Source of the DNA: an uncultured Actinomycetes bacterium
Lineage (GTDB): Bacteria > Actinomycetota > Thermoleophilia > RBG-16-64-13
DNA length: 64,000 bases
Direction: 5' to 3'
NCBI GenBank assembly: GCA_963706025.1
Contig: CAVPLM010000003.1
Coordinates: 160,001-224,000, forward strand
Position numbers and translations under genes: made by a program. Every line of letters begins with the position of its first letter. Position 1 is the first letter of the stretch. The notes beneath the pieces were generated by a model, which saw only the letters and a program-made list of their open reading frames with translations, did not search any database and was not told where the DNA came from. Shown here piece by piece: positions 8,798 to 64,000 of the stretch.

Positions 8798-10570
8798 GTG
8801 TCGCCTGATCCTCCGGATCCGGCCGCCGGACAGGCCGGTCCCGGCCCGCCCGCGCCTGAGCTGGGCTCCGTCCCCGGCTCAGGCGCGGGGGCTGCCGATG
8901 GGCTCGCCGCCCCCATTGGCGCGGCCGGCCCCGCGGGCCGCGCGCCCGGCCCAGCCGGCGCGGCCGGGCCCACCGGCGTCGCCCGCTCGGTCCGATCGGT
9001 GGTGGGCAAGGCCGCGATCGTCATCGTCACGGCGACACTGGTGGGGCGACTCCTTGGTCTGGTGCGCGATATCGCCGTCGCCTACTTCTTCGGGGCCCAG
9101 GCCGACACCGACGCGTTCTTCCTAGCCTATCGGATCCCCTACTTGCTGGTGCTGATGGTGGCCGGGGCGCTTACCGCCACCTTCGTCCCCCTCCTAAGCT
9201 ACCGGCTGGCCACCGGCCGCAAAAAAGAAGCCTGGGATCTCTCCATCAACATGGGCAACATCATCGCCGTGATCCTGGTGGCGGTCACCGTCGTGCTGAT
9301 AATCCTCGCTCCTTGGATCATCCCCCTCGTGGGCTACGGTTTTGACACCGCCACTGCGGACAAGGCGGTCTTCCTGTTCCGGATCCTGATGCTCGGATTG
9401 GTTTTCGAGGGCCTGACCGGTCTGGTCGTCGGCATGCTCAACTCGCTCAAACGCTTCGCGCTTGCGGCGTTCGCTCCCGCCGTGGGCACGGTCGTCGCCC
9501 TGGTGATCATGGTGGCTTTGGAAGAGAGCATCGGGATCACGTCGCTGGCCATCGGGAGCGTGCTCGGGTGGGTGGCCGGACTGTTCGTCCTGTTCCCCGG
9601 CCTGCGGGGCCAGGAGATCCGCTATCGCCCGCGCATCGACTGGCACGACCCGGGCGTGCGCGAGGTGGGGGGCATGATCTGGCCCATCCTCATCGGGTCG
9701 GCGGTGGGCAAGGTGAGCATCTTCGTAACCCAGATCCTGGGTTCGATGCTCGAAACGGGATCGATCTCCAGCCTGAGCTACGCGGAGAAACTGTTCCAAC
9801 TGCCCCTAGGGTTGTTCGTCGCGGGGATAACCGTCCCCATCTTCCCCCTACTCTCGGAACAGGTGGCTGCCAACGCTCCTGAACGTGTCAAGGCCACGGT
9901 CAACTTCGCCATGCGGCTCATGGGATTCCTCATGGTCCCGGCCACCGTGGGGATCATCCTGCTCCGCTATGCCATCATCGGGCTCATCTTCGAGCACGGG
10001 GAGTTCACAGCCGAGGACACCACCCGCACGGCCTGGGCCCTCCTGTTCCTGGTCCTGGGGCTCTACGCATACGCGGGGCGAGACACTCTCACGCGGGTCT
10101 TCTATTCCTACCACGACACCCGGACCCCGGTGAAGATCAGCGTGATCACGGTGGTCATCAACATCGGTCTTTCCTATCTCTTCATGCAGTACCTCGGCGT
10201 AGGCGGACTGGCGCTCGGATTCACGGTGGCGCTCACGGTCAACTTCCTGGTTCTCACCTGGCTTCTCGAGCGGCGGATCGGGGCGATGGGGTTCGGGAAC
10301 ATCTTCGGCTCACTGCTGCGAGTGACCGGCGTCTCGGCGGTCATGGGGGTAGTCGTTTGGACGGTCGACTTCCTGCTCTCGCGCGAGGTCGGAGAGACCG
10401 TTGGGGGCAACGCGTTGCGGGTCGCGGCCGGTCTCGTGGTGGGGGCGTTCGTCTTTCTGTCGGTGGCTAGGCTTGCTAAAATGCCCGAACTTGCCGAAAT
10501 AACCGATATGCTCCGCGCGGTCCTGAAGCGGCCGACGCGTGAGCCCGCCGGACCGGGCTCCACGGGGTGA
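8798..10570 (+). CDS. murJ: MurJ/MviN flippase
   Basis: GRLLGLVRD, DAFFLAYRIP, FQLPLGLF, RVFYSYHDTRTP; the true start may be ATG 8718 with a frameshift. Confidence 0.9.
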   Translation: MSPDPPDPAAGQAGPGPPAPELGSVPGSGAGAADGLAAPIGAAGPAGRAPGPAGAAGPTGVARSVRSVVGKAAIVIVTATLVGRLLGLVRDIAVAYFFGAQADTDAFFLAYRIPYLLVLMVAGALTATFVPLLSYRLATGRKKEAWDLSINMGNIIAVILVAVTVVLIILAPWIIPLVGYGFDTATADKAVFLFRILMLGLVFEGLTGLVVGMLNSLKRFALAAFAPAVGTVVALVIMVALEESIGITSLAIGSVLGWVAGLFVLFPGLRGQEIRYRPRIDWHDPGVREVGGMIWPILIGSAVGKVSIFVTQILGSMLETGSISSLSYAEKLFQLPLGLFVAGITVPIFPLLSEQVAANAPERVKATVNFAMRLMGFLMVPATVGIILLRYAIIGLIFEHGEFTAEDTTRTAWALLFLVLGLYAYAGRDTLTRVFYSYHDTRTPVKISVITVVINIGLSYLFMQYLGVGGLALGFTVALTVNFLVLTWLLERRIGAMGFGNIFGSLLRVTGVSAVMGVVVWTVDFLLSREVGETVGGNALRVAAGLVVGAFVFLSVARLAKMPELAEITDMLRAVLKRPTREPAGPGSTG

Positions 10571-16119: not shown

Positions 16120-16241
16120 GGGCGGCAGGAGCGGCACGCCCGGGACGCGACGGCGGGCGCGAGTCAGGGCCAGGATCTGCCAAGAGTCGACCATACCCGT
16201 CGACGTGAAGCGACCCGGCCTGCGGGGTCTCGCGTCGACCG

Positions 16242-16661
16242 TCAACCCTCGTTGGTGCCCGCCCCTGTCCACGTGCGCAGGGGCCTCACCTCCGCGATGC
16301 GCTCGAAGTCCTTGTCGGAGTGCAGCAACACCCCATCGTGCTCGAGGGCGACTTGGGCGATGAGGCAGTCCACGGTTCCTCGCACGGAGATGCCCTGCGC
16401 TCGGCAGTCGAACATGATGCGGGCCGCATCGACGTGAGTGTGCCACGGATCGAATGGCGAGAGCAGGTTCTGCGTTTCCAAATAGGAGAGCAGCAGGTGC
16501 CACTCCTGGGCGTCGCGCGCCCCGGCGAGCAACTCCTGACAGCAGATAGCAGGGATGGCGAAAGGAATCCCGTCGACCTCCAATTGCTGGAGCCGGAGAG
16601 CGGCAGTCGTCGACTTCCCTTTGAAGAAGTCGACTAGGACCGACGTGTCGACCACGATCAA
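16242..16661 (-). CDS. vapC: VapC PIN-domain toxin
   Basis: IVVDTSV, ELLAG, DCLIA, HSDKDF. Confidence 0.9.
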   Translation of the reverse strand: MIVVDTSVLVDFFKGKSTTAALRLQQLEVDGIPFAIPAICCQELLAGARDAQEWHLLLSYLETQNLLSPFDPWHTHVDAARIMFDCRAQGISVRGTVDCLIAQVALEHDGVLLHSDKDFERIAEVRPLRTWTGAGTNEG

Positions 16662-49628: not shown

Positions 49629-50270
49629 CTAGTATGCGATGCAGAAACGCTGCCGGATGTGGCGCGGCTCCTCGAGCTCGTCGATCATGGCCACGGCGTA
49701 GTCCTCCACCGAAATGCGGCACTGGCCTTCGGCGTCCATCATCACCTGGTCGCCGCCCAACCGGAACTCCCCGGTGCGTTCCCCCGGAGCCAGCATCATG
49801 GCTGGGCTGAGGAAGGTCCAGTCGAGTTCCGGCTCCTCCCGCAGCAGGTAGAGGAACTCACGCGTGCCCAGCGCGCCGGCCTTCCACTCCTCTGGGAACC
49901 CCGGCTGGTCGATCACCTGCTGCCCGGGGGCGAGCTCCAGGCTGCCGGCTCCTCCCACCACCAGCAGGCGACCGATGCGCGCCTTCTTCGTGGCCGCGAT
50001 GATCGCCTTGGCTCCCGCGACCATGGCCTCGTATTTGTCGGCGGTATCCGCGTCGGGATTGTACGCGGCGATGACGGCGTCATGGCCCGCCAAGAGACGC
50101 GCCAACGCCTCTGCGCTCAGCGCGTCACCCTTGTTGGCCGTAAGGCCTATGTGCGCCGGTAGCCGCTCAGGCCGCCGCACGATGGCGGTGACCTCGTGGT
50201 TGCGACTCAGCGCCTCGTCTAAGATGCGCGAGCCTACGAAACCCGTGGCTCCTATCAAGGCGATCTTCAT
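49629..50270 (-). CDS. NAD(P)-dependent oxidoreductase (putative NADH-flavin reductase)
   Basis: IGATGFVG, VVGGAGSL, DWTFLSPA, ISVEDYA. Confidence 0.9.
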   Translation of the reverse strand: MKIALIGATGFVGSRILDEALSRNHEVTAIVRRPERLPAHIGLTANKGDALSAEALARLLAGHDAVIAAYNPDADTADKYEAMVAGAKAIIAATKKARIGRLLVVGGAGSLELAPGQQVIDQPGFPEEWKAGALGTREFLYLLREEPELDWTFLSPAMMLAPGERTGEFRLGGDQVMMDAEGQCRISVEDYAVAMIDELEEPRHIRQRFCIAY

Positions 50271-50297
50271 CAGCCCTCCCTCCTTTTCACCGGTCTC

Positions 50298-51729
50298 TCA
50301 GATTCGGCCGCTCAGGTCCTGGAACACCAAGCCCGTCGGCAATTTGGGGTAGAAATACGTGGCCTTCTGGGGCATGCGCTCTCCACCGAGGGCGACCTCC
50401 CGGATCTGGTCTAATCCGGTGGGGTTGAGGAAGAACCCTGCCTGGAACTCGCCTGCTTCCAGACGGGCGAAGGCGTCGTCGGGATCCTTGAAGAAGGTCA
50501 CGTGCGCCTCCACGGTCCCCTCTCCGCCCGGGGTCGTGTTGCCGCCCGTGGCTGTGCGGCCGCCCGTAGCCGAGTGGCCGGGGGCGATGCCGAGCGTCTT
50601 CCCCAGGATCAGCGTGGACAGCACGGTGACGTCCAGAAGCTGGTAGGCGGTGCTGTGATCTGGGGCCGCCGCCCGCGCGGCCCCCGGGTCGGCGAGCCGG
50701 AGGCCGTAGGCGCCATCCAACGTGCGTCCCCACAGGCCGAACGCGCCTCGGGGATGGTCCCGGAGATAGGCTGCGATGGCCGCCTGAGCCGTCGGCAGCG
50801 CCGACGGCGCCACCGCCCGCCAGTGGTTCTACTGAGAACACGCCGGCAAGCGACTGAGGCAGGGCCGTCACTGCCTCCGGATCGAGGCCGGAGATCAGCC
50901 GATGGGTACCGTATATGGCCAATCCCGGGTCGGACATGTTGCCGAAATACGCGAGGACGTAGTCGGAGGCATGCAGCCCTTGCCCAAGACCGGGCGGAGC
51001 AGCAGCGGTCTGGGCGCCCGGCGCGCTGTCGGTATCGGGCGCGCGGAGTGTCTTGTAGCGGAGGGCAGTCTCGTAGCGATGATGGCCGTCGGCGATGAAG
51101 AAACGCGTTGCCCCTAGATTCTTGCGTATGGCCTCCAGCAGGCCGGGGTCTGAAGTGGGCCACAGCTTCGTGACCGTGCCTTCCTCATCAGTCACCGTCG
51201 CGACCGGGGCCTGCGTACCCATGGCGCTCTTCCACGCCGCGGTGATCTCATCGCCGGGCAGATCGTAAAGAAGGAAGACGGGGCTGAGGCCCATCGCGGT
51301 CGCGGTCAGCAATCTGTAGCGGTCCTCCTTGGGTCCCGAGAATGTCTGTTCGTGTGGGAAGACCACTCCCTCGTCCAACCCGAAGAGCCGCATGAGGGCC
51401 AAGAAGCCGTGTCGGATCCTGAGGCGGCCGTCGGGGCCCGTGAAGCTCTCTTCCACGAAGGTGACGGAGGGTTCCGCATCCCGGACCAGGATGCCGCTCT
51501 CTTTCCAGCGCGCCAGCTGGTCGGCGGCACGAGTGTACTGGTTGTCGCACTCACTATCGCTGGGCATGGTCATGCCCAGGTCCACTCGGACGACGTTGTG
51601 CCGGCTGCGGTCGTAGAGGCGGGACCGGAGTTCCGGACCGATGACATCGTACGGCGGCGCCACCACCTGGGACAACTCGCCGGCTGAGGGAGCATAGCGC
51701 CACGCGCGAAACGGGATCACGGTCTCCAA
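50298..51729 (-). CDS. DUF1015 family protein (frameshift ~50810)
   Basis: PFRAWRY, APPYDVI, PHEQT, IADGHHRYETA; C-terminus MPQKATYFYPKLPTGL in a second frame. Confidence 0.88.
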
Positions 51730-51945
51730 GCATGCCTCCACAGGTCCGGGGATAGGTGATATGCGGCCCCCGAATGATATCACCGGCCATGGAGTGTACC
51801 GTAGAGGGGCCTCAGGTCGACCCACCCGTTGCCTGCAGGCGTGCAAATCGTTACATTGGGAATAGACAAAAGTACATTCGGTTCAGTGCCGGAAACGGGC
51901 GATCGTCAGGTCTCTCGCCCGGCCTACGAGGGAGAAGGTGCGCTG

Positions 51946-52359
51946 ATGGGTCTGATGGACAAATTGGCCGAGGGTGCTGAACGGGCTGCCAAGGAAGCGG
52001 AAAAGGCATTCGACAAGGGCAAGACCAAGGTCGGTGAGCTACAGGTCGAGATGCAGATGGACGGATTGGCCAAGAAGCTTGGCTACTTGGTTTTCGATTT
52101 CTACCGAGGGCGCCAAGTGGACCAGGCGCTGCGGCAGAAGATCCTTGACGATCTGTCCCGTCTTGAGGATCAACTACTCCGAGCTCGGGCCGAGGCTGCG
52201 GCCAAGGCCCAGCCCGAGGCGGCCGCCGGCGCCGCGGCTGCCGATCCGACCTCGAACCCGGTGGACGTCGAAGCCGACGGCCCGGCTGCCGCGACCGCTG
52301 AAGCGGCCTCGGTGGACGATCCGTCCCCGGTCGCCGGCGACTCGCCACCGATCTCGTGA
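51946..52359 (+). CDS. Hypothetical helical protein
   Basis: MGLMDKLAEGAERAAKEAEK...LGYLVF; GGAGAAGG RBS; low-complexity tail. Confidence 0.7.
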   Translation: MGLMDKLAEGAERAAKEAEKAFDKGKTKVGELQVEMQMDGLAKKLGYLVFDFYRGRQVDQALRQKILDDLSRLEDQLLRARAEAAAKAQPEAAAGAAAADPTSNPVDVEADGPAAATAEAASVDDPSPVAGDSPPIS

Positions 52360-52371
52360 AGGGATGATTCT

Positions 52372-52941
52372 ATGACCGATGAGATCCACGAACTCAGCGA
52401 GGTGGAGCTGGCCAGATTGATGGCCGGCGACCCGCGCGTCCTTTCCCGCTTGGCGGCGGGCGAGCGCATTCGCGCGAAGACTCCCTTCCGATACCCGGGG
52501 CGGCGAGGACCCGTGGTGGTGTATCTGACCCCTGAACCTGGGGACGCGCCGCCCGCGGCGAGCACCGCCGGGCAGCCGGACGCCGCGGTGGGGGGAGGCT
52601 CGGTCTCCGCCCCCGGCGTCACCGCCGCTTCGCGGCCGGTGCGTATCTCCGACGGGGGAGACCTCATCAAGAGCCTCGACGAGCAGGGCATGGACCTCTC
52701 GGTCGACATGATTCTGAGCAAAACCGTCTTTCACGCCGCCAAGCAGATGGAAGGCGGGACCGTCGCCAACGGTCAGATCTGTTTGGATTCCACCGTCGGC
52801 AGGGTGGCCGTTGATCTCTGGCGGTTCCTGCAGTTGGTGGCCGAGATCATCGGTCTGCGCCATTCCAAGTACAAGGATGCCCTGCTGCGGCTCTCCCGGC
52901 GCCAAGACGCACCCGATCTGCTCCACTGGGACGGCCAGTAG
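52372..52941 (+). CDS. DUF1828-like protein
   Basis: KTPFRYP..VVVYL...VRISDGG resembles DUF1828, with an Ala/Pro insertion. Confidence 0.55.
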   Translation: MTDEIHELSEVELARLMAGDPRVLSRLAAGERIRAKTPFRYPGRRGPVVVYLTPEPGDAPPAASTAGQPDAAVGGGSVSAPGVTAASRPVRISDGGDLIKSLDEQGMDLSVDMILSKTVFHAAKQMEGGTVANGQICLDSTVGRVAVDLWRFLQLVAEIIGLRHSKYKDALLRLSRRQDAPDLLHWDGQ

Positions 52942-53015
52942 CTCGACGACCCGGGACTAGCCCGACAGCGGACACGGGACACCGCGGCTCGCGCGATCCT
53001 CCGCGAACCGGGGGA

Positions 53016-53411
53016 TCAGGCCACGGTCGTATAGGTCTCGAAGACCGGCGGGTGGTCGAGGTGACGCTTGACCGTGCACTGCTCGGCCGCCCGGACGATG
53101 GCATCGCGGTATTTCTCCGGAAAACCCGCGGGAAGTCGGATCTCGATGGAGATCTTGCTGATCAGTCCCGCCTCGCGGTCGCTCTCAGTGCGCAGAGTTA
53201 TCCCGGCCCCTTCGGTCGACAGGCCGCGTTGCTGCATGAACGTGAGCACGAAGATGCCTGCGCACGTACCGATGGAGGTCAAGAAAAGATCGAAAGGGGC
53301 GGGCGCGGTCCCCTCGCCGCCTGCATGCTCCGACTGGTCGGTCTCGATCACGAAGCCCTTGTAACGGGCGTGAACCTTCTTGTTGCCGGGGAAGTAGACC
53401 TCCATGTCCAT
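53016..53411 (-). CDS. OsmC family protein
   Basis: GGEGTAPAPFDLFLTSIGTC ... AEQCTVKR. Confidence 0.9.
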   Translation of the reverse strand: MDMEVYFPGNKKVHARYKGFVIETDQSEHAGGEGTAPAPFDLFLTSIGTCAGIFVLTFMQQRGLSTEGAGITLRTESDREAGLISKISIEIRLPAGFPEKYRDAIVRAAEQCTVKRHLDHPPVFETYTTVA

Positions 53412-53524
53412 CAGGATCTCCTTGGGGAGAGTTTGGCACCCGACAGCATAGCGTACGAAGTGGCAGGGTAGACCCCGTCGGAGGTGATCCGCGATGAAAG
53501 GCGGTCAGGGAGTATCAGTGGCGA

Positions 53525-53872
53525 TCAGAAGCTGGCGGGTTCAATACGCTCGGAACGGGCGCGCCTTATCAGGTCGAGATCCCCGCGGCTCGGACCTATC
53601 AGGTCCGGTTCCGGGAGTGTCTCCAATTCGGCAAGCGCCTCCAGCACGCAGGCGAATCCCTCTTCGACGGCCAGGGAAACATAGATCACCTCGGGGCGAT
53701 CGAGGACGGCCATCTGCTCGAAGCCGCAATCCGGACACCAAAGACGGAGTCTCCAGCGGGACTCGTCTTCCCGTTCCCAGTCTGCGGCCTGGACAAGAGG
53801 TGAGGCACACGATCGGCAGAAGATCCGAGGAATGGGATTGCGGGACGTCATGCTGTCAGGACCGTCACTCAC
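53525..53872 (-). CDS. Small zinc-ribbon protein
   Basis: CRSCASPLVQ...WRLRLWCPDCG; start uncertain (GTG 53872 or ATG 53851). Confidence 0.7.
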   Translation of the reverse strand: MSDGPDSMTSRNPIPRIFCRSCASPLVQAADWEREDESRWRLRLWCPDCGFEQMAVLDRPEVIYVSLAVEEGFACVLEALAELETLPEPDLIGPSRGDLDLIRRARSERIEPASF

Positions 53873-54030
53873 GGTGCCTCTGTCTCTCTGCGCCGGCAGG
53901 CCGGCCGCGGTCAATTGCCAGTAGGTGGCCTGGACTGCGCCACAAGACAAGTATCGGCCGGGGGGGCGGCGGGGTTTAGCGAAGAGCAGCAGATGGGCCG
54001 TTCCCGCAGTCTCCCCGGCACGAGCAGGCC

Positions 54031-54816
54031 CTACTCAGCTTCCGTTCCAGACTCCCCCTCATGTGAGGACGACGGTCTCGCCTGCCAGAACGTGGCCAAG
54101 GACACCAGTCGAGCGACGATGGTGATGAGAAAGATCTGCCCGAAGATCGCCTGAAACAGCCCAAGCAGTTTTGCCGGGTACGTTACCGGGACAAAGTCAC
54201 CGAGGCCTACGGTGGTCATGTTGACGAAGCTGTAGTAGTAGAGGTCACCGACAGCCATGGAGTGCCCAGGGGAGGCGGACGGCGCGATGACCGCCTCCCC
54301 GTGAGCCACTGACAGCACCAGGTAGAGAATGGCGAAATCGATGCCGACCAGAAGATAGGCGGACAGTGCCGCCGCTATGGTCTCCCCTGTCACCCGCCGA
54401 GCTGAGGCAATGCGACGAATGATGAGCGGAAAGGCCGCGATGAGCAGCATTACGAAGACAAGACCAGCCAGCGAAGTGACAACTACGCCGAGTACCGAAT
54501 TGCCCAGCCAAACAAGAATCACCGAGCCTGCCACTCCGCCGACGAACGCGATCCAGCCCAGGATCACCCAGACCCGTGAAGCACGTGATGCACGAACGGC
54601 AAGCAAGAGAGACGCCGCTGCCAAGGCCTGGCCGACCCTCCATCCCCACTCATACTCCGCCGCTCCGACGGTGAACACGAGACTGACGAGCAGCAGAACG
54701 AAGAGTGCGTAGTACGAGTCGGCCCCAGACAGCCGGCGTCGGTGACTCACGGCCACCTCAGCCTCCGACTGCCGCTCGGACGTCTCTTCGATGTCGTGCC
54801 TCTTTCTCAGGAGCAA
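54031..54816 (-). CDS. Potassium channel family protein (Ion_trans_2)
   Basis: Multiple TMs; pore YYSFVNMTTVGLGDFVP. Confidence 0.9.
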   Translation of the reverse strand: MLLRKRHDIEETSERQSEAEVAVSHRRRLSGADSYYALFVLLLVSLVFTVGAAEYEWGWRVGQALAAASLLLAVRASRASRVWVILGWIAFVGGVAGSVILVWLGNSVLGVVVTSLAGLVFVMLLIAAFPLIIRRIASARRVTGETIAAALSAYLLVGIDFAILYLVLSVAHGEAVIAPSASPGHSMAVGDLYYYSFVNMTTVGLGDFVPVTYPAKLLGLFQAIFGQIFLITIVARLVSLATFWQARPSSSHEGESGTEAE

Positions 54817-55176
54817 TACCTCCTCCTAGCACCCACGCACGAATTATCATGGAAGCGAGCGCTTGGTCCCGTATCCCGTTTTCGACGTCGGAGCTTCGTT
54901 TCCCCCCGCCGCGCGAGTGGGTGCGACCATGGTCGGGATGGTGTCGAGAGAATTGGCGCATGTGCCATTCGTTCGGCTAAGATGGGCTCGTCATACCCGG
55001 CCGGCCAACTTGCAGACCGGGCTCGACAGGACACGAGTGAGGGCGCGCAAGAAGGCGCACCGCGGAGGGTTCATGGGGCTGAACCGGGCAAGACGAGCCG
55101 GCCTTCATATCGCGTCCATGCTCTGGGGCGGCCTGTTCAGTCCACAGGTGTGGTGATCGTGACCCAGAAGGAGCCC

Positions 55177-57483
55177 GTGGTGGGTGAGACGACACAGAAC
55201 GGACGAAAGCGTCGTCGCTTTCCCCTTGCCAGCATCGTCGTGGCAGTCATCTTGTTCCTACAGGTGGCCTTCTACTTCCTGGTCGGGATAGCCGATCTGT
55301 TCTCCGTGGGAGTGCTTGGCAGCAAGCCCGCAGCTGACTTCATCGTGGAGGGCGCGCTCAGCCCCGAGGGGAGCCTACTGGTTGCTGGCGGGTTTGCTCT
55401 GGTTTTTGGAGCCTTGGGCCTAGCTGTCATGGTCGGTCTCTTCTTTGGGCGGAGATGGGCTTGGGCGTCCGCCATGACCTGGGCCACTCTGTCCCTCGCG
55501 CTTGGTCTCGTATACTACTTCCGAGGGGACCCCAGATACTGGAGCATGCTTGGGGCCGTGGTATTCGTACTGGCTCTCAACCAGGCTTCCGTACAGCGGG
55601 CATTCACCAAACAGAGCGCGCGGGTGACTCCCGCGACGGGCTCCCAGCAGAGTGACATGGTCTCGGCGCCGACGGAAGCTTCGAACCTGGAGCTGCTGCG
55701 CACCTTCGAACCCGTGCTGCGCTTCACTAAGGGAGAGCGCTTCTTTCCAACCGACGTTGAGAGATACGTGTCTCGATCGAGCCTCTGGGTGCGTCATCCC
55801 GACGGCAAGGAGGAGGTGCTGGCGAGGAGAGGTGAGCTCGACATGGAAGGGCTTGCCCGGCACCGAGAGCATGTCTTCGGTACCGTGGAGTATCTTCGCT
55901 TCAACGATACCCTGAGCGTGGCTGAAGGCGCCCGGGCGCTCTCCGAGGTGCGCCGACTACGCAAACAGGATGACGCAGTCTTTCGTCCGGGAGTGGGCCG
56001 GCTTGCCCGGGTTGGGTTTGCCCCTCGAGTAGTCGATGCCTTGTTCTCTCTTTCGCTACTTCTGAGGGGAAAGGTACATCCGGTGACGGCAGCTGCCGCC
56101 GAACTCGAATACCACCGAATGTTGCTCCAAGACCAGAGGCACCCATACTACGGCCGGGTTGCCCGCCGAGGAGGCTGGACCATACTCCAGTACTGGTTCT
56201 TCTACTGCTACAACAGCTGGCGGTCAGGGTACGAGGGGGCGAACGATCACGAGTCCGACTGGGAGAACATCCTCATCTACCTGTATGAAGAAGACGGCCG
56301 TCTTCATCCTGAGTGGGTCGGTTATGCATCGCACGATTTCCATGGCGACGATCTGCGCCGGCGCTGGGACGACCGCGGGCAGCTCGAATTGGTGGAAGGA
56401 CACCCGGTGGTATGGGCGGGAGCCGGATCTCACGCCTCGTATTTTCAGCAAGGCGAGTACCAGGCAAAGGTAGCGCTTCCCGTGCCCAACTGGATACGGG
56501 CGGTGTCCAGAGGACTGACCTTCTTTTGGACTCGCATTCTTGGGCAGGCCGGCAGAACGTCGGACCCGCTGCGCATCCCCTTTGTGGACTACGCACGAGG
56601 CGACGGAACGAGCATCGGTCCAGGCCAAGAGCACGGATGGGAGCCGGTCGTCATCGACGAGTCCACTCCCTGGGTCAGTCGCTATCGCGGCCTGTGGGGC
56701 CTCTTCGCGAACGACCCCACCTCGGGCGAGAACGCTCCTGCCGGGCCGATGTACGAGCGTAGCGGTGAGCCTCGGCGCTCTTGGTACGACCCCCTGGGGT
56801 TTGTCGGGCTGGATAAGGAGCCGACCCCGCCGGCTGCCAAAGACTTGCTTGCGCAAGAAAGCGCCCGGATCGAGCAACGTCAGCTTGACGTGGACCGGCT
56901 TATCGGACAGAGGCTCTCTGAGTTGCACGTCATCAGCGCCGAGATGCTGGCGATGGAAGGCAACCCGAATCTCCGCACCCGCTACCTCAAGTCGGCCGAT
57001 GAAACAGTCTCCGTGAGAGACGATCTCCGTCGTCTGCAGCAGGAGCTCACCGAGAATGAAGCGGTGCTCGGGGCTGTCAGGGAGAAGATGGCCACACTGG
57101 AAGAAGGCCGGAGATCCGACCCTCGGGCTCACATCAAACAGCTTGCGCAGCCTGTGCCTCAGGCTGACTTACGGCTCAATCGAGCGGCTGAGGCGTGGGG
57201 TGCGGTAAGCCTGAGCCTTATCCTGCTCGGCATCGTGGCTTTGCTGGTTCTTGCTCGCGATCATCTCTGGATCGGGCTCGTAGTCATGATCGGGGCCGTG
57301 CTGCTTCTGGAGGCGATCCTTCGGGGCCACTATGTTCGTACGCTCGGAGGCATCGCTGCGATACTTGCCGTGATCTCAGCCATACTCCTCATCGTCCACT
57401 TGTGGCTGTGGGTCATCGCGATAATCCTGGCCGCACTAGCATTGTTTCTGATGGTGCAGAAACTCCGGGAGCTGTGGAGCTAG
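55177..57483 (+). CDS. Membrane protein with central Vps62/NPP1-like domain, coiled coil and C-terminal TMs
   Basis: Four N-terminal TMs; FEPVLRF..GERFFP, YYGRV, LQYWFFYCYN, HESDWE, GSHASY, YRGLWG, PAGP; GTG start after AGGAG. Confidence 0.7.
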   Translation: MVGETTQNGRKRRRFPLASIVVAVILFLQVAFYFLVGIADLFSVGVLGSKPAADFIVEGALSPEGSLLVAGGFALVFGALGLAVMVGLFFGRRWAWASAMTWATLSLALGLVYYFRGDPRYWSMLGAVVFVLALNQASVQRAFTKQSARVTPATGSQQSDMVSAPTEASNLELLRTFEPVLRFTKGERFFPTDVERYVSRSSLWVRHPDGKEEVLARRGELDMEGLARHREHVFGTVEYLRFNDTLSVAEGARALSEVRRLRKQDDAVFRPGVGRLARVGFAPRVVDALFSLSLLLRGKVHPVTAAAAELEYHRMLLQDQRHPYYGRVARRGGWTILQYWFFYCYNSWRSGYEGANDHESDWENILIYLYEEDGRLHPEWVGYASHDFHGDDLRRRWDDRGQLELVEGHPVVWAGAGSHASYFQQGEYQAKVALPVPNWIRAVSRGLTFFWTRILGQAGRTSDPLRIPFVDYARGDGTSIGPGQEHGWEPVVIDESTPWVSRYRGLWGLFANDPTSGENAPAGPMYERSGEPRRSWYDPLGFVGLDKEPTPPAAKDLLAQESARIEQRQLDVDRLIGQRLSELHVISAEMLAMEGNPNLRTRYLKSADETVSVRDDLRRLQQELTENEAVLGAVREKMATLEEGRRSDPRAHIKQLAQPVPQADLRLNRAAEAWGAVSLSLILLGIVALLVLARDHLWIGLVVMIGAVLLLEAILRGHYVRTLGGIAAILAVISAILLIVHLWLWVIAIILAALALFLMVQKLRELWS

Positions 57484-57611
57484 TCCGACCTTCCCCGAAG
57501 TCGGCCGGGAGGCCACGGATACCCGGGGACGTATGAGGTTTGGAAAAAACTGGTTCCGGAAATTTATACCGCCAGGCGTATCCGCCAACCACGAAATGAG
57601 GAGGGAACACA

Positions 57612-58014
57612 ATGAAAAGGCCGATAGGAGTATGGATCATAGGCATCCTCGCGCTTATTGTCGCGATCCTTCGCATCTTGGGCGCGGTTCACGGCCCTGG
57701 GTGTCGGCGGGCTGGCGATGACCGGCACACTGGGCGAGGAGGCGGGGAGTCTCGGGGCAGAGGCCCTGGGGGTCGGGATAGCGTCGCTGATTAGTAGGGT
57801 CATCCTTGTCCTGATCTTTGCCCTGGCCTTCCTGGGACTGCAGCCCTGGGCCTGGGCGGCCCTGATGATCATTCAGTTGCTCACCATAGTGGTGGTAGTC
57901 GTGCAGTTCATCTTCGACGGCTTTCACTGGTCTTCGCTTACTACCATCATCATCCCGGTGATCATAGTCTTCTACCTCACCAGACCGAGAATCAGGCAGG
58001 CGTTCGGAGACTAG
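57612..58014 (+). CDS. Small four-TM membrane protein (frameshift ~57680)
   Basis: MKRPIGVWIIGILAL in one frame; LQPWAW...VFYLTRPRIRQAFG in the next. Confidence 0.7.
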
Positions 58015-58084
58015 CCGGTACAGCCGGGACCCGCGGATGCAGGATCTGACCCAAAGACCAGACTCAGAACCAGGAGGCCAAGTA

Positions 58085-58411
58085 GTGATAGTAACCACCA
58101 CATCGAGCATCGAGGGAATGAGGATCACGGAATACAAGGGAGTCGTCAGCGGTAACGCTATTCACGGCATCAATATCGGGAAAGACTTCAAGGCTATCGG
58201 ACGGAACATTGTCGGGGGACGCTCGCAGGCGTACGAGGACGAGCTCGGCAAAGCTCAGTCCGAAGCGATGGCTGAGATGGAAAGCGCCGCCGCCGATCTG
58301 GGAGCGAGCGCGGTCGTTGCCGTGAGGCTGGACGTCGAAGGCCTCGGAGCCCAGAACAACATGCTCCTGGTCAGCGTTACCGGGACTGCGGTGGTCGCGC
58401 AGCCTCTCTAG
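58085..58411 (+). CDS. YbjQ/UPF0145 family protein
   Basis: IVTTTSSIEG..ITEYKGVVSG, IVGGRS.AY, LGASAVV, MLLVSVTGTAV. Confidence 0.92.
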   Translation: MIVTTTSSIEGMRITEYKGVVSGNAIHGINIGKDFKAIGRNIVGGRSQAYEDELGKAQSEAMAEMESAAADLGASAVVAVRLDVEGLGAQNNMLLVSVTGTAVVAQPL

Positions 58412-58470
58412 GACCCGTGCCCGGGATATCGGCTCGCCCGGACACTAGACCGGCCGGGCAGAGAACGAGC

Positions 58471-58496
58471 GAGGGCCGTCCTTCGGGGCGGCCCTC
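58471..58496 (+). terminator. GC hairpin with UUCG loop after ybjQ
   Basis: GAGGGCCGTCC-TTCG-GGGCGGCCCTC. Confidence 0.6.
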
Positions 58497-58500
58497 TCAA

Positions 58501-58538
58501 TGCCGCGCAAGCGGTACCGGGGGCTCGGACCCCCCCTC
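58501..58538 (+). other. Second, degenerate 3' fragment of the same tRNA-Ser
   Basis: TGCCGCGCAAGCGGTACCGGGGG identical to 40322-40344; T-loop mutated to CTCGGAC. Confidence 0.8.
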
Positions 58539-58572
58539 AAAGCGGCTCGATCCCGAATCGCCAGACGGGGCT

Positions 58573-59283
58573 TCAGGCAGGCTCCGGTTCGGCCTTGGGC
58601 TTCCCGATCAGATAGTGGTAGAGCAATCCTCCGACGGCGCCACCGATGATGGGCGCCACGATGAACAACCAGAGCTGGGAGAGAGCCCAGCTGCCCTGGA
58701 ATATGGCCGGCCCGATGCTTCGGGCCGGGTTGACCGAGGTACCGGTCACCGGAATACAAATCAAGTGGATGAGGGCCAGGGTCAGACCGATGGCGAGCGG
58801 GGCGAAACCCTTGGGTGCGCGCTCGTCGGTGGTCCCCATGATGACGAAGATGAAGATCAGGGTGAGCACGAACTCGGCCACAAAGCCCGCGGCCAGGCTG
58901 TATCCCCCGGGGGAATGCTCGCCATAGCCGTTGGAGGCGAAGCGGTCGGCAGCGGAGAAACCATCCACTCCGCTGGCGATGACGAAGAGCACCGCGGCGG
59001 CCACGATGGCCCCGATCACCTGAGCAACCATATACGGGCCGACATCTCTACCCGGGAAGCGCCTTCCTAGCCACAGCCCGAACGTCACCGCCGGGTTGAA
59101 ATGGCCTCCCGAGATGTGACCCACGGCATAGGCCATGGTGACCACGGAGAGGCCGAACGCCAGTGCTATCCCCAGAAAGCCGATACCAAAGTCCGGGAAG
59201 GTTCCGGCCAGAACGGCGCTCCCACAACCTCCCAGAACGATCCAGAACGTGCCGAAGAACTCGGCTATCAAGCGCCTTCCCAT
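58573..59283 (-). CDS. aqpZ: Aquaporin Z
   Basis: [40 protein letters not shown]. Confidence 0.95.
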
Positions 59284-59600
59284 ACCCACCTCCGCTCCAA
59301 GGATTACCCGCTGGCGGCGACGGACTTGGACCGGGTCTAGCCCGCGGTCCCGACTCCGCCTCCCAACCAGTCACAGTGTAGTGGATGCGCCTCGCATTAT
59401 GGAATCCTTTGCTTGCGCGACTCTGGCCCACACTGTAGAGTCCGCCGTGTGAACGGTAGGGGTGTTCCGGAAACGACCGTCAGAGAGAATCCCATGTCCA
59501 CTTCCGAGATGGCTGCCGGCGAGCTGCCCGGCTGCGACTCACGTATCGGCCTGGCGCCAAATCCGAGGCTGGAGACCGCTGCCGAGCCCGGGGGCTCGTC

Positions 59601-60701
59601 GTGAGAACCATCTCCACGGAGATCGCGTCACCGGCACCTGCCAAGCGCTTGATCGTCGTGCGTAGCATCCACGCCGGCCGCGACCTCGAGATGTTCCTGG
59701 TCACGGCGATCGCGACGATCCTCATCGTTCGCGCCGCCCTGGCGGCCACCGGCTGGCCACAGCTCGGCGGCGGCAAGATCCACGTCGCCCACCTCCTGTG
59801 GGGCGGGCTCGGTATGCTCGTCGCGCTCATCTTGTTCATGGTCTTGCAGGGGCGGCTTTGGAAACAGGTGGCGACGCTGCTCGCCGGCATCGGCTTCGGG
59901 CTGTTCATCGACGAGCTCGGCAAGTTCATCACGTCCGACAACGACTACTTCTTTCAGCCGGCCGTCGCCATCATCTACCTGCTGTTCGTGATGCTGTTCC
60001 TCGTCGGGACGGCGATTGTCCGCTGGGTCCGCATCTCGCCACACGCGGCGCTTGTGAACGCGTTCAGCCTGGCCCAGGAGGCCGTCATCCGCGACCTGGG
60101 CGAGGCGGAGCGCACCCAGGCCCTTACGTTGCTGGCGCAATGCGACCAGACCGAGCCCCTAGTGCAGGACTTGACACAGATGTTCAGCGCCATGCGCTCG
60201 CCGGCGAAGACGCCACCGCGCTTCTATATGCGCCTCAAGACGCGGCTCCGGACCTTCTACCAGTCACTGCTCGGGAAGCGCTGGCTCAAGGCACTCGTTG
60301 TGGGCTGGTTCGTGCTCGTCGCTCTCGGCAACCTGCTCCTTGCCATTCTCGTCGTCGTTGTCGCCGCGGCGGGGGAGTCGGGCTCACTGACTCTAGACTT
60401 CTGGAGGTACGGACAGCTGGTCTCTTCCGCCATCGGCGGCGTCCTAGTGGTTGTCGGCCTGATCCGCTGGCGCAGCTCGCGTCTGGCTGCGTACCGCTGG
60501 TTCGAGCGCGCGCTGCTGTTTACCATCTTCGTCACCCAGTTCTTCACTTTCTATAACAACCAATTCACGGCCGTCTTTGGGTTGGTCATCGCGCTCCTCA
60601 CCTATGTGACGATCAGGCTCATGATCCGCGAGGAGGAAGCTCGCGAGGAGTCGCGGTCGCCACACGAATCTGAGGGGTCTGCCCCAAGCCGGCTAGACTG
60701 A
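59601..60701 (+). CDS. Hypothetical polytopic membrane protein
   Basis: TGWPQLGGGKIHVAHLLWGG, GIGFGLFIDELGKFITSDNDYF; about 9 TMs. Confidence 0.8.
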   Translation: MRTISTEIASPAPAKRLIVVRSIHAGRDLEMFLVTAIATILIVRAALAATGWPQLGGGKIHVAHLLWGGLGMLVALILFMVLQGRLWKQVATLLAGIGFGLFIDELGKFITSDNDYFFQPAVAIIYLLFVMLFLVGTAIVRWVRISPHAALVNAFSLAQEAVIRDLGEAERTQALTLLAQCDQTEPLVQDLTQMFSAMRSPAKTPPRFYMRLKTRLRTFYQSLLGKRWLKALVVGWFVLVALGNLLLAILVVVVAAAGESGSLTLDFWRYGQLVSSAIGGVLVVVGLIRWRSSRLAAYRWFERALLFTIFVTQFFTFYNNQFTAVFGLVIALLTYVTIRLMIREEEAREESRSPHESEGSAPSRLD

Positions 60702-60949
60702 GGCTATCGCGCGGGCTGGCGGCCGGCCTGCTACGGCGGATAGTCATCGACAGCGCTGGACCCCCCAGGCGAAGCCGATATCGGGGTTGTCGGCCGCGAC
60801 GAGGAAGGGATCAGAAACGCGGCGCTCAGCGGCAGACGGGGCGGCAACCTCCCCGGCCGGCCGAGTCCAGCTATCTCCGCGGCGCCATCTTTCCACCTCA
60901 TTGTCCTGCAATCGCCAATCAAACGGTTGCTCGATTCGGCGAGAGCGAG

Positions 60950-61108
60950 GTTCCACCTTTGGTTGTATTCGCTTCCGAGCCCCACTCCGTTACCCTGCAG
61001 TACCCGGTCGGCGGGGGAACGGAGGGTGAACGGGGGGTCCAAGGTGAGCACTTTCATCCTGGCAGTGGACCGCCCGGCTGAAGAGGCGGACTTCGCACTT
61101 CTGCGACA
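60950..61108 (+). repeat. ssb-element remnant 1 (upstream motif + 69-bp ssb fragment + 14-bp junction)
   Basis: GTTCCACCTTTGGTTGTATTC-N20-TACCCTGC; VNGGSKVSTFILAVDRPAEEADF coding fragment at 61026-61094; GCACTTCTGCGACA at 61095-61108. Confidence 0.88.
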
Positions 61109-61262
61109 TCCGCCTCAGCTCGCACCTCTTTATCAGACCTGCTGAGATCCTCGATCTCCTCTCAGGTAACGAACTCTCCGCGCGGCACCGACCGACTGCT
61201 CCGTATCCGCTGTCTGGCGAGGCGGTCGTGGCGGGTGCTCGTGAGTGCGGGCCCGGTCGCTC

Positions 61263-62567
61263 CTAAAGGTCCTGCCGCGCACGTGGCGGGACCAGCTTCG
61301 TGCGTGAAGGCTCGCGCACGAGAAGGAGGATCAGGATCGCGCTGAGCACCAGCAGAAGAGCGGCGGTGACGAAAGCCCTGCTGGCGCCAAAGCGGTCGTA
61401 GATCCACCCTCCCAAAAGCGGACCGATCACTCCGCCCAATGCAGCCGCTGCGGTGTAGTATCCCAGCGCTGAACCCTGGTGGGCACGGTCTGCAAGGTCG
61501 GTCACCAGTGCCTCCTCGGCGGGTATCGCGGCGGCGAAGGCCGCAGCCTCGAGCACCCACAGAACGGCCAGCGGCCAGAGCGACCGCACGAATACGACCG
61601 CAACGGTAGCCAGCGCGGCCACCACCAGCGCGGCCACGATCGGTGGGCGCCGTCCGACGCGGTCGCTGATGCCGCCCAGTCGCGAGGGGAGCACCGACCC
61701 GGCGACGGCTGCCGGCAGGAAGGCGAGGGCAAGGGCGAGCATGCTGGTCGAGACGTTGTCGAACAGGTACGGCATCAGGATCGGGCCCAGGAGCGCGGTG
61801 GCGACCGCCGTCAACACCACGATACCCATCAGGAGCCTCAACTGGCCGGGGAGGCGCCACGCTCCACCCCCGGGGGCCCTTTGATCCTCGGCAGCTCCAG
61901 GTGTCTTCTCGACGCGGCTCCCGCCTTGAAAGAGAGTCTCGGGGATCTTCCGCCATACGATCGCGGCAGCGACCAAGGTAGCGACTGCGTACCCGAGGAA
62001 GAGCAGGCGCCAGCCGCCGACGAGCGTCAGCCATCTTCCGGTTTCGTCGCCTTCGAGCAAACCGAGAAGAGCGAAGCCCACGAGAGACCCTACGAGGGTG
62101 CCGCGAAAGGCCATTTCTTCGATGCGCCCGTATTCCCTTCCGCGACAGTCGACAGGCGCTAGGTCCGACACGATGGCCAGAGCCGCAAGCCACGTAAGAC
62201 CCGATCCCACGCCCTGCGCGACCTGGGCGAGATACAGACCGCCCACCCCTGATGCGAGGCCAAAGGCAACGTTCGATAGGGCATAGGCCAGCAGGCCGGC
62301 GATCAGGAAAGGCCGCCGGCCGAGACGGTCGAGCCCGCGCCCGATGAGGGGCTGGGAGATGACCACGATCGCCGCGTAGGCGGAGAACAGCCCACCGATC
62401 GCGAGAGGGCCGGCTCCCATCCCGCGTGCGATGAGGGGCACGCCGAACAACAGCATGCCGAAAGGAAAGGACGTGAGGAACACGCTGAGCCGCAGACGCC
62501 GGAGGTGCCGGTCGTTAGCAGAGGTTCTCGCGTCGTCCGATGCGAGGGGTGCGCCCGAGTCAACCAC
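61263..62567 (-). CDS. MFS transporter
   Basis: Motif A GRGLDRLGRR and GGISDRVGRR; 12-TM pattern. Confidence 0.92.
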   Translation of the reverse strand: MVDSGAPLASDDARTSANDRHLRRLRLSVFLTSFPFGMLLFGVPLIARGMGAGPLAIGGLFSAYAAIVVISQPLIGRGLDRLGRRPFLIAGLLAYALSNVAFGLASGVGGLYLAQVAQGVGSGLTWLAALAIVSDLAPVDCRGREYGRIEEMAFRGTLVGSLVGFALLGLLEGDETGRWLTLVGGWRLLFLGYAVATLVAAAIVWRKIPETLFQGGSRVEKTPGAAEDQRAPGGGAWRLPGQLRLLMGIVVLTAVATALLGPILMPYLFDNVSTSMLALALAFLPAAVAGSVLPSRLGGISDRVGRRPPIVAALVVAALATVAVVFVRSLWPLAVLWVLEAAAFAAAIPAEEALVTDLADRAHQGSALGYYTAAAALGGVIGPLLGGWIYDRFGASRAFVTAALLLVLSAILILLLVREPSRTKLVPPRARQDL

Positions 62568-62680
62568 TGCAGGCTCCTATTCGTGTCGAATCTGTCCCGT
62601 ACTCTCTCACACTCGACTGGCCAGAGATAGCATGCAGGGAAGCGCAACCTGTGCCTCGGGAAATGGGGCTCCATTCGGGA

Positions 62681-62784
62681 TTCCACCTCGAGGTCGAGGG
62701 GGTGAACGGCGGCTCGAAGGTGTCGAGCTTCATCCTGGCGGCAGATCGCAACGCCGAAGAGGCGAACTCCGCACTTCTGCGACA
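62681..62784 (+). repeat. ssb-element remnant 2
   Basis: TTCCACCT; VNGGSKVSSFILAADRNAEEANS fragment at 62702-62770; GCACTTCTGCGACA at 62771-62784. Confidence 0.88.
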
Positions 62785-62828
62785 CTGTGTCTGCTCCGGC
62801 ACGTGCCTGTCAGTCTGTGCTTGAAGCT

Positions 62829-62963
62829 TTGATCAGCGACGCAGTGAAGTCCGCATTGGCCGAAGATGCCGAGGATCTCCAAGCGTTCGAAGAGCGTGCT
62901 TCAGAGCCCGACCTTCTGTTCGAGACCGTGGTGAAGGCTCTGAAGGCGGATGGGAAGATTTAG
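62829..62963 (+). pseudogene. 5'-truncated CopG/RHH-type antitoxin
   Basis: LISDAVKSALAEDAEDLQAFEERASEPDLLFETVVKALKADGKI*; N-terminal DNA-binding part absent. Confidence 0.7.
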
Positions 62964-63210
62964 GGTCTTCATCAAGCCCTCCGCCGTCCATGAGATCGAG
63001 GGGATCGCTGAAATGAAGCAGCGACAACGGATCGTCGCAAGTATCGGTGCCTTGAGTGACGATCGCCGCCCTCCGGGCAGCGAGAGGCTGACCGGCCGGG
63101 AGCAATACCGTGTGCGGCAAGGTGCCTATCGGATTGTCTACGCGATCGAGGACGACCGCCTCGCGGTGTACCTGGTCAAGGTGGGTCATTGAAGCAGCGT
63201 CTACCGGTAG
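62950..63210 (+). pseudogene. RelE/ParE toxin with premature stop
   Basis: RPPGSERLTG, YRVRQGAYRIVY, KVGH*SSVYR*: TGA at 63190-63192 where Arg is expected. Confidence 0.75.
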
Positions 63211-63328
63211 GTTCCATCGGCGAGTCGGATTGCGCCCGACTAGCGGAGGATCAGAGCAACGACGTCGAAGTCGTCCGCCGGCACCTTGAGGTCTTGAGGC
63301 TGGAACCAGTAAGTCCACTCTTTCGGTA

Positions 63329-63377
63329 GTTCCATCTTTGGTTGTATTCACCCAGGGCGCGCCTCCCGCTACCCTGC
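63329..63377 (+). repeat. Bipartite motif upstream of the intact ssb, shared with remnant 1
   Basis: GTTCCATCTTTGGTTGTATTC-N20-TACCCTGC. Confidence 0.85.
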
Positions 63378-63479
63378 TATCCCGGGCCGCCGCTGAAAGC
63401 TGAGGAAAGGCCGCGCGGCGGATAGGACACCATCCAATCCCGGAGGGACGAAACCAGTACTGAGAGGGAGGAAGGAACC

Positions 63480-63767
63480 ATGAACAGCGTGCACCTGATC
63501 GGCCGTCTGGCCACCGACGTGGACGTGAAGGAGGTGAACGGCGGGTCCAAGGTGAGCAGCTTCATTCTGGCGGTGGATAGGAATGCGGAGGAGGCGGACT
63601 TCTTCCGGATCAAGGCTTGGAACTCGCAGGCCGAAGCCGCGGGAGACCACTTGGGCAAGGGCCGGCGGATAGCCGTCGAAGGCTCCCTTCGTCAAGACGT
63701 CTACGAGAAAGACGGGGAGGAGCGGAAGGCCGTATCGGTGGTCGCCAAGAGGTTGGAGTATCTCTAG
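63480..63767 (+). CDS. ssb: Short single-stranded DNA-binding protein (OB fold only, no acidic tail)
   Basis: MNSVHLIGRL, FILAVDR, ADFFRIKAW, LGKGRRIAVEGSL; strong RBS. Confidence 0.92.
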   Translation: MNSVHLIGRLATDVDVKEVNGGSKVSSFILAVDRNAEEADFFRIKAWNSQAEAAGDHLGKGRRIAVEGSLRQDVYEKDGEERKAVSVVAKRLEYL

Positions 63768-63771
63768 GCGG

Positions 63772-63809
63772 AAAAGGGGCGCCGGCGGCGGATTCCGCCG
63801 CGGGCGCCC
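63772..63809. terminator. GC-rich hairpin after ssb
   Basis: GGGCGCC..GGCGGA/TCCGCC..GGCGCCC, preceded by AAAA (a U-tract on the minus strand). Confidence 0.5.
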
Positions 63810-64000
63810 TGAACACAGTCCTCGCGGGGTGCATCGTTCCAGCGGAGAGAAAGGAATGAGCGACGCTGGTAATCTGGGGTCGGAGAAGACGCCGTCTACA
63901 CCGGTGCGACGTTCGAGCGCTGCAGCAGAAGCATGGGGGTGATGTCATTGTCGGGCGCAACAGAGCAGCGGGCCCGGATACTGGCGGCCAAGCTCAATCT

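Follow-up and report, generated by a model that had tools for sequence, protein, structure and literature searches.

Stacked attL-like junctions at a short ssb gene of an uncultured Thermoleophilia bacterium: probable scars of repeated integration by large serine recombinase elements

Phage-type large serine recombinases (LSRs), such as those of Bxb1, TP901-1 and SPbeta (SprA/YokA), have three domains, are encoded beside their attachment (att) site, and integrate inside a protein-coding gene by way of an imperfectly palindromic attP of about 50 bp built around a central dinucleotide. These traits recur at the locus described here, a short ssb gene at the right end of a 64,000-nt stretch (hereafter the window; G000:C3:160001-224000) of a metagenome-assembled genome (MAG) of 3.66 Mb in 30 contigs, 92% complete and with 7.3% contamination, which we compared with 61 genomes of its family (uncultured Thermoleophilia/Gaiellales). 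Relatives carry a three-domain LSR beside the att site, the gene is split in two of them (G006 and G028), the attP has the same palindromic plan, and the nearest solved structures of the ssb-linked LSR are of phage-type enzymes. The locus departs from the phage systems in that its target is a tail-less paralog of ssb, that 12 bp are common to attB and attP, that no LSR accompanies many of the junctions and that, in the window, the target gene is whole beside two displaced copies of its own 5' part. We think it probable that these copies are stacked attL scars, left by LSR elements that integrated at a fixed spot in the short ssb, the gene being re-supplied after each insertion.

A repeat search of the window finds one family of 85-nt direct repeats, with copies at 61024-61108 (the reference), 62700-62784 (79% identical) and, within the intact ssb, 63532-63616 (69%). 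In the two displaced copies the ssb part (61024-61094 and 62700-62770) ends at the same base and runs on into the 14-mer GCACTTCTGCGACA, of which the window has exact copies at 61095 and 62771 only; a first-pass annotation of this DNA had singled out just such a pair of ssb pieces and their common 14-mer, and the repeat search bears it out. Both remnants are also recovered by tblastn with the 95-aa SSB (E values of 2.5e-8 and 1.8e-7). Taken alone and with up to 2 mismatches, GCACTTCTGCGACA is not significant, since at least 2 matches occur in 11 of 100 shuffles; its weight comes from its position and from its recurrence in relatives. The ssb upstream motif TTCCAYCTTTGGTTGTATTC is found in the window only at 60951 and 63330 (0 of 100 shuffles), both copies being followed by N20 and TACCCTGC, and remnant 1 does keep the bipartite TTCCAYCTTTGGTTGTATTC-N20-TACCCTGC of the intact gene, as had been claimed. 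The TTCCACCT of remnant 2, taken at first for a separately retained site, is instead the leftover of an internal deletion: each remnant descends by internal deletion from a full module (motif, 5' untranslated region (UTR) and 41 codons), which the same-genus genome G003 keeps in full. The copies differ largely at synonymous sites, including the AGC/TCG swap of a serine codon, with third codon positions accounting for 9 of 13 differences in remnant 1, 9 of 15 in remnant 2 and 25 of 33 in three modules of relatives. This bias argues that the displaced fragments were formerly functional ssb 5' ends, in agreement with the earlier proposal that they derive from functional alleles; as judged from codon positions, the remnants are shown to have diverged under purifying selection. 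The small open reading frames (ORFs) lying over the remnants (60927-61145 and 62540-62824) are not genes, which deserves a warning in any annotation.

The shared junction is a 26-bp site, GAGGCGGACTTC followed by GCACTTCTGCGACA. On the evidence of its symmetry, this 26-mer is one half of a palindromic attP of about 50 bp centred on the GA of GAGGCGG; the attB includes the ssb codons E-A-D-F. In eight pairs of arms, P and the reverse complement of P' match at 14-17 of 24 positions, a level reached by 0-4 of 1000 shuffles, and the centre of symmetry is the GA that starts GAGGCGGACTTC. The P arm of a provirus from IMG/VR matches the P' arm of remnant 1, as an inverted copy, at 17 of 24 positions (0 of 1000 shuffles), and the arm variants co-vary within an element of genome G036, where GCAGAATTGC is paired with GCAATTCTGC. 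The symmetry places the crossover most likely at GA, that is, at 61083-61084, 62759-62760 and 63591-63592. Because the first 10 bp of P' (GGCGGACTTC) are identical to ssb, homology to the gene stops at one base and the 14-mer follows; the shared end base, read at first as the cut itself, is thus the right edge of the 12-bp identity between attB and attP, and the likely crossover lies 10 bp leftward.

The first clue to the enzyme was a C-terminal LSR stump within the array of G036. A PF07508 scan of the family genomes gives 36 matches in 22 genomes, and in G006, G025, G028, G024 and G008 the LSR is no more than about 3 kb from a split half of ssb. Full-length enzymes (Resolvase, Recombinase and Zn_ribbon_recom domains) are found in G006, G025, G028 and G024, with remnants in G036 and G008. 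The four full-length ssb-linked LSRs form one clade with 55-61% mutual identity; members of the ssb-linked clade, including the enzyme of the IMG/VR provirus, are at least 45% identical to the LSR of G028, the other LSRs of the family at most 30%. Their closest solved structures are the phage serine integrases 9iu2 (1.2e-14), TP901-1 and SPbeta YokA. In G006 the halves of ssb stand 59 kb apart at the native locus of ssb and a large LuxR/AAA-like (LAL) gene, and the element looks like a prophage, since the LSR adjoins attL and an Amidase_2 lysin lies near attR. The IMG/VR provirus fragment runs from the LSR through 130 nt to TGTAGGCAGAAGTGCGAACTCTGCG-GA-GGCGGACTTC-TTCCGTATCAAAGCC and continues as far as the ssb end, the 14-mer being inverted beside the LSR gene. 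Of the earlier claim of repeated site-specific recombination inside ssb, the multi-allelic, reused site stands and the enzyme can be identified as a phage-type LSR; the dedicated capture system finds no support. As a separate observation, several LSR genes of the clade (L190:4686, L193:8514 and, on the minus strand, position 1212 of L174) encode ...REEADF... in the resolvase domain, and the DNA at these codons (GAGGCCGACTTC, GAGGAGGACTTC) nearly equals the att core, which may be coincidence.

The course of events that we propose is the following. The short ssb would carry, at about codons 30-47, the attB for one clade of phage-type LSR; an element with an attP of about 50 bp (P arm, GA, P' arm) would integrate at the GA of GAGGCGGACTTC, yielding an attL made of the ssb 5' part, GA and P', and an attR made of P, GA and the ssb 3' part. 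After each insertion, the element body, the LSR and attR would be lost and a complete ssb 5' module with its promoter re-supplied, either (a) by restoration of the split ssb with a relative's DNA, through homology in the ssb 3' part and LAL and an illegitimate join inside the element, or (b) by insertion into one of several tandem attB-bearing ssb 5' modules and subsequent deletion. Repetition would stack the units with the newest closest to ssb. The window would then contain two attL scars, and after each the P'-proximal stump left by an element that has decayed (an MFS transporter after the first, a toxin-antitoxin (TA) pair after the second), with the intact ssb at its right end. Internal attP-like sites elsewhere could be the product of neighbouring elements recombining attR x attL, or of an enzyme that tolerates unusual pairs. 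A test of donor flanks, made on the stretches immediately before the motifs, leaves route (a) unsupported: 62620-62682 matches only G003, and the match of 63237-63328 is to a P'-proximal piece of a cassette and not to the flank of an ssb. Read in this way, the window is laid out as follows.

53990-54049 (+): left edge of the inserted block; synteny with empty alleles stops at about 53981-53990, and a lone GTTCCA at 54044-54049 is a motif leftover
54050-60949 (no strand): oldest part of the insertion; no recognisable att site; partly common to G003, absent from G001 and G002
54742-57483: 913-aa ORF without a Pfam match
58037-58411: YbjQ, in the oldest part of the insertion
58573-59289 (-): MIP aquaporin, in the same part
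59601-60701: 366-aa membrane protein, in the same part
60950-61082 (+): module 1, putative B arm of attL1, with the motif at 60950-60970, TACCCTGC at 60991-60998 and ssb codons 18-37
61083-61108 (+): attL1 core, GA at 61083-61084 (probable crossover) and the P' half-site GGCGGACTTCGCACTTCTGCGACA
61109-62619 (-): P'-proximal MFS stump of a small LSR element, with the MFS transporter gene at 61263-62567 (-)
62683-62758 (+): module 2, putative B arm of attL2, an internally deleted ssb 5' module whose full version stands at the equivalent place in G003
62759-62784 (+): attL2 core, GA and the P' half-site in the variant GAGGCGAACTCCGCACTTCTGCGACA
62785-63236 (+): toxin-antitoxin stump, with an antitoxin ORF at 62787-62963 and a ParE/RelE-family toxin at 62950-63192
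63237-63328 (+): short piece, 82% identical over 78 nt to the sequence after the P' arm on metagenome contig L196
63329-63767 (+): intact unit, with the motif at 63329-63349, TACCCTGC at 63370-63377, the 5'UTR and the ssb coding sequence (CDS) at 63480-63767
around 63591-63602 (+): attB, inside the intact ssb, with its core at these positions and GA at 63591-63592

Module 1 has lost its 5'UTR and codons 1-17. The array had been thought to begin at 60950; synteny with empty alleles moves the start of the block to about 53990. Empty and filled alleles could be compared within the genus, as G001 and G002 have empty sites: in both, and in L041, the equivalent of window 50000-53981 runs directly into the ssb upstream motif, and since these alleles join the left flank to the motif, the inserted block spans about 53990-63330 (about 9.3 kb). 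G003 holds the MFS and TA units in the order of the window, with further units between TA and ssb, which fits growth on the ssb side. An Rfam search of window 58000-64000 found no family, and near the other sites it found only tRNAs. The 913-aa ORF of the oldest part has transmembrane-looking ends and a 69%-identical copy elsewhere in the genome (C5:864965-866773).

The cargo tells more of where the units came from. Window 61188-62619 corresponds, at 85% identity, to positions 2849-4288 of L058 in G036, where it is the left part of a 4.3-kb element composed of attL, the MFS gene, an amidohydrolase, the C-terminal LSR remnant and an attR in which the ssb sequence runs as far as gene position ~158; G003 has the truncated ssb unit of G036 in the unoccupied (attB) state. 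In the light of this larger element in G036 and of the unoccupied unit in G003, at least the MFS "cassette" is the P'-proximal stump of a small LSR element, and truncated ssb copies inside arrays can act as additional attB sites. The left junction of the TA unit (attL and about 60 nt) is conserved in four genomes and its right side is different in each, as expected from decay from the right. The antitoxin gene of the window has lost its 5' half, and full-length TA copies stand at C3:762810-763317 of the same genome and in G003, G036 and G002. The 92 nt that separate TA from the ssb motif (63237-63328) are probably, to judge from their match on L196, the relic of a third element. Of the cassette-like array first described, the repeated site and the differing cargo remain, at least the MFS unit being a stump of an LSR element and no purpose-made cassette. 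The MFS gene and most of the G003 cargo are antisense to ssb, and there is no integron-like arrangement of integrase and promoter. Far from the window, and 10 kb from each other, lie a second, partial MFS copy (89%, C3:752403-752917) and the whole TA pair (92%, C3:762810-763317); a half-site-like word, GAAGTGCGAAG (C3:752340), occurs about 40 nt from the second MFS copy, outside the aligned homology.

The site is by no means confined to the window. With up to 3 mismatches, the 26-mer gives 27 matches in 15 of the 61 family genomes (the reversed control gives 0), and it is found on 28 metagenome stretches as well. All fetched sequence together holds 71 distinct sites with the consensus GGCGGACTTCGCAcTTCTGCg.Ca after GA, and for the 70 sites with a long enough downstream sequence the next 120 nt sort into 56 unrelated clusters; reuse of the junction elsewhere with different cargo, as the first-pass annotation expected, is therefore plain. 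The left arm is ssb-like at 22 of the 71 sites by a strict test; among the remaining 49, some arms are degenerate forms of ssb. A different left arm (...TTGGTTGAGAAGACCGGAAT) recurs at other sites, which stand in arrays of 2-5 copies that end rightward in that arm, GAGGCGGACTTC and TTCCGCATCAAGG, only 25-28 nt of ssb; some further sites are almost perfect palindromes. The arrays with non-ssb left arms have no conserved neighbour gene, the largest cluster being generic ABC ATPases, and the exact site has 0 matches in viral_contigs. One site of the same genome has a setting of its own: C14:148968-149773 holds a tRNA-Phe, a HicA/HicB-like pair and an apparent second tRNA 3' end (about 149560-149590, judged by eye), with an attP-like 26-mer bearing a non-ssb left arm at C14:149748-149773, about 150 nt past that apparent end.

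Several points weigh against stacked LSR scars and a re-supplied ssb. Canonical attP x attB integration splits ssb and by itself gives no account of the duplication of a whole 5' module, and the arrays of relatives, in which 2-5 complete attP-like sites stand between units of 0.8-4.2 kb without an LSR, need a further step. The genome itself, at 92% completeness, gives 0 matches to PF00239 and PF07508; that no recombinase is visible in the window is confirmed, and the one suspected beyond its 64 kb finds no counterpart of the relevant kind in the whole genome. A full-length LSR of the clade is absent from all 15 genomes with the 26-mer (G034 has one LSR, of another clade), and in the genomes that do have a clade LSR the P' arms have diverged. 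The sole LSR beside an arm matching the 14-mer of the window is that of the provirus fragment (CheckV completeness 46), whose attL end is missing, and the clade members of G013 and G018 are not adjacent to ssb in the stretches examined (13 kb away in G013). A comparison of the 5' and 3' parts of the intact ssb (123 and 162 nt) with relatives gives a different nearest relative for each, by only about 4 nt, too weak to count. Finally, the recombination itself is inferred from sequence. No LSR lies near the site on any of the 28 metagenome contigs either. As the genome is without an LSR, the array is now probably frozen unless an enzyme arrives in trans, and since the genomes with the 26-mer are without a clade LSR, their arrays are either fossil or served in trans.

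The alternative that survives best, which we nevertheless regard as unlikely, is an active cassette platform of the SCC or integron kind (SCC, staphylococcal cassette chromosome), in which att-bounded units without a recombinase would be excised as circles and re-inserted by an LSR acting in trans and accepting non-canonical pairs. It would accommodate the arrays of 2-5 attP-like sites and 0.8-4.2-kb units that lack both an LSR and a conserved neighbour gene, the 56 kinds of cargo start, the high-quality genomes with arrays and no LSR, and the presence of one attL and TA unit at different positions or loci in four genomes. However, the right side of that TA unit differs from genome to genome, so that no discrete right end travels along with it, the MFS unit is demonstrably what remains of an LSR element, the internal attP-like sites can also result when neighbours recombine attR x attL in the canonical way, and no circular form or well-supported cassette-sized joint was seen in the contigs of public runs. 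Still more doubtful, in our view, is the wider form of this idea, in which the ssb locus of Gaiellales would be a living, LSR-driven platform of cassette exchange, with units that lack a recombinase and end in attP-like sites circulating between genera and ssb 5' modules acting as renewable or decoy attB sites that keep ssb working; were it true, the platform would be an actinobacterial counterpart of SCC or integrons.

Homologous recombination of the Campbell type needs no site-specific enzyme: circles carrying an ssb 5' fragment would integrate by homology, the common end point being inherited from one ancestral junction. The ssb 5' modules (about 270 bp) are long enough for RecA-dependent recombination, and recombination from module to module would account for the clean empty alleles. 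But the 26-mer is also seen beside left arms that are not ssb and in palindromes of about 50 bp without long homology, it adjoins LSR genes, and no single ancestral junction can stand before 56 unrelated sequences and still keep an arm of 24 nt; we hold this route to be very improbable.

That the array is an artefact of metagenome assembly or binning is less credible still, even for a MAG of 30 contigs with 7.3% contamination and with contigs of public runs that break at repeats. The copies differ by about 20% and so are not collapsed strain variants, and the order MFS, module, TA is found in G003 too. Public runs were examined as Logan contigs only: a contig from another study bridges the junction of remnant 1 (X6 record 31, 61025-61331), X4 record 23 bridges TA to ssb (63073-63553), and X4 record 22 covers the passage from the MFS unit into remnant 2; no listed Logan contig bridges the junction at 62771. 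As contigs from public runs bridge junctions, misassembly is unlikely. Logan joints at 53985>63491 (X1 and X3; sides of 33 and 25) and 60972>63480 (X6; side of 22) are like empty or shorter alleles; their sides are short, the likeness is 90%, and relatives may be their source. A tyrosine recombinase at the junctions, be it the IntI of an integron, the integrase of an island or XerCD on dif-like sites, is just as hard to credit, for although PF00589 gives 8 matches in the genome (two of them Xer-like, another truncated and 2 kb from an ssb relic on C18), tblastn with 7 of the 8 as queries finds no relative in the 93 array loci searched, the other arrays contribute only one fragment (in L148), the candidate dif (C5:363797) is unlike the junction, and both the neighbouring genes and the build of the site, a long palindrome with a dinucleotide at its centre, indicate an LSR. 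Xer/dif modules were likewise set aside, the junction 26-mer being unlike the only dif-like site of the assembly, ATGCACGATAATGTGCATTATGTAAAGC at C5:363797-363824.

The target itself (63480-63767, plus strand) encodes 95 aa with the OB-fold of SSB (Pfam SSB, 2e-22; 36 SSB matches in the PDB). It is a tail-less paralog, the canonical ssb standing at C3:803522, and in 45 of 45 close loci it is followed by the same LAL gene; 8 of these 45 have extra ssb 5' fragments, one to four in number, upstream of ssb. The protein is unusually conserved, with 93-100% amino-acid identity in 29 of the close loci (among L038-L082), whose DNA differs by 12-25%. Three further forms of the gene were noted. A relic in the same genome (C18:13588-13760) consists of the upstream motif, the ribosome-binding site and the first 22 nt of the CDS, followed by unrelated sequence; its cut point is unlike that of the window, and a truncated tyrosine recombinase ORF lies 2 kb off (C18:15757-16278). 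In L058 of G036 (9983-10418) the resident ssb has a partial tandem duplication, codons 1-45 being rejoined to CDS nucleotide 6, out of frame by coordinates. Finally, the ssb of L194 (G013:C39; reverse complement, 16159-16446) has one additional codon just before the core (DRAGGEEADFF), possibly an altered attB.

If stacked attL scars are the right reading, gene fragments cut at one base are explained by a concrete pair of enzyme and site. Such a pair would also be a new natural family of LSR attB/attP sites, with a shared 12-bp core and half-sites of about 24 nt, of the kind sought by genome engineers, and the locus would mark a hotspot for the flux of genes, among them those for transporters, toxin-antitoxin pairs and regulators, in a widespread group of uncultured Thermoleophilia. 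It raises the question of how an essential-looking target gene is kept whole under repeated attack by integrases; module duplication with decoy attB sites and recombinational restoration are the candidates. Searches of the literature on Gaiellales integrons and on prophages with LSRs and an ssb attB gave no report of such a system. What appears new is the target (a tail-less ssb, struck within the 5' third of the gene), the lineage, and the stacking of attL scars by a re-completed target with truncated copies as extra attB sites. According to PMC11795197, the recombination directionality factor of the integrase of phage TG1 is an SSB. Given that report, a functional tie between the tail-less SSB and the integrase is conceivable, and one may speculate that targeting of ssb might control directionality or superinfection.

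Among other described systems, an ssb that an LSR element interrupts at the native ssb-LAL locus (in G006, G028 and the host stretch of the IMG/VR provirus) recalls regulated gene integrity, or active lysogeny, whereas in the window the gene is whole and no element is able to excise. Like integrons, the locus has an array of small, mostly single-function units, a repeated site and a fixed insertion point with the newest unit nearest to it. Unlike integrons, it has no IntI (none in the 93 ssb-array loci searched with 7 of the 8 tyrosine recombinase matches, and none within 25 kb downstream in the same genome), its sites are double-strand palindromes of the LSR type, and its cargo is mostly antisense to the resident promoter. 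In the composite islands of SCC at rlmH, serine-recombinase att repeats mark every junction of a tandem array beside one conserved gene, the target gene stays functional, and Ccr enzymes accept unusual site pairs. The window, with its two attL-bounded units, and the relatives, with up to 5 sites per array, follow the same plan, the target again remaining functional, and the recombinase-less units resemble the psiSCC units of an SCC composite island. The differences are the phylum, the LSR clade, the point of attack (the 5' third of ssb, codons ~37-41, versus the 3' end of rlmH) and the duplication here of a whole 5' module with its promoter; moreover, the likeness is a functional one only. On balance, the proposed stacking resembles SCC composite islands more than an integron.

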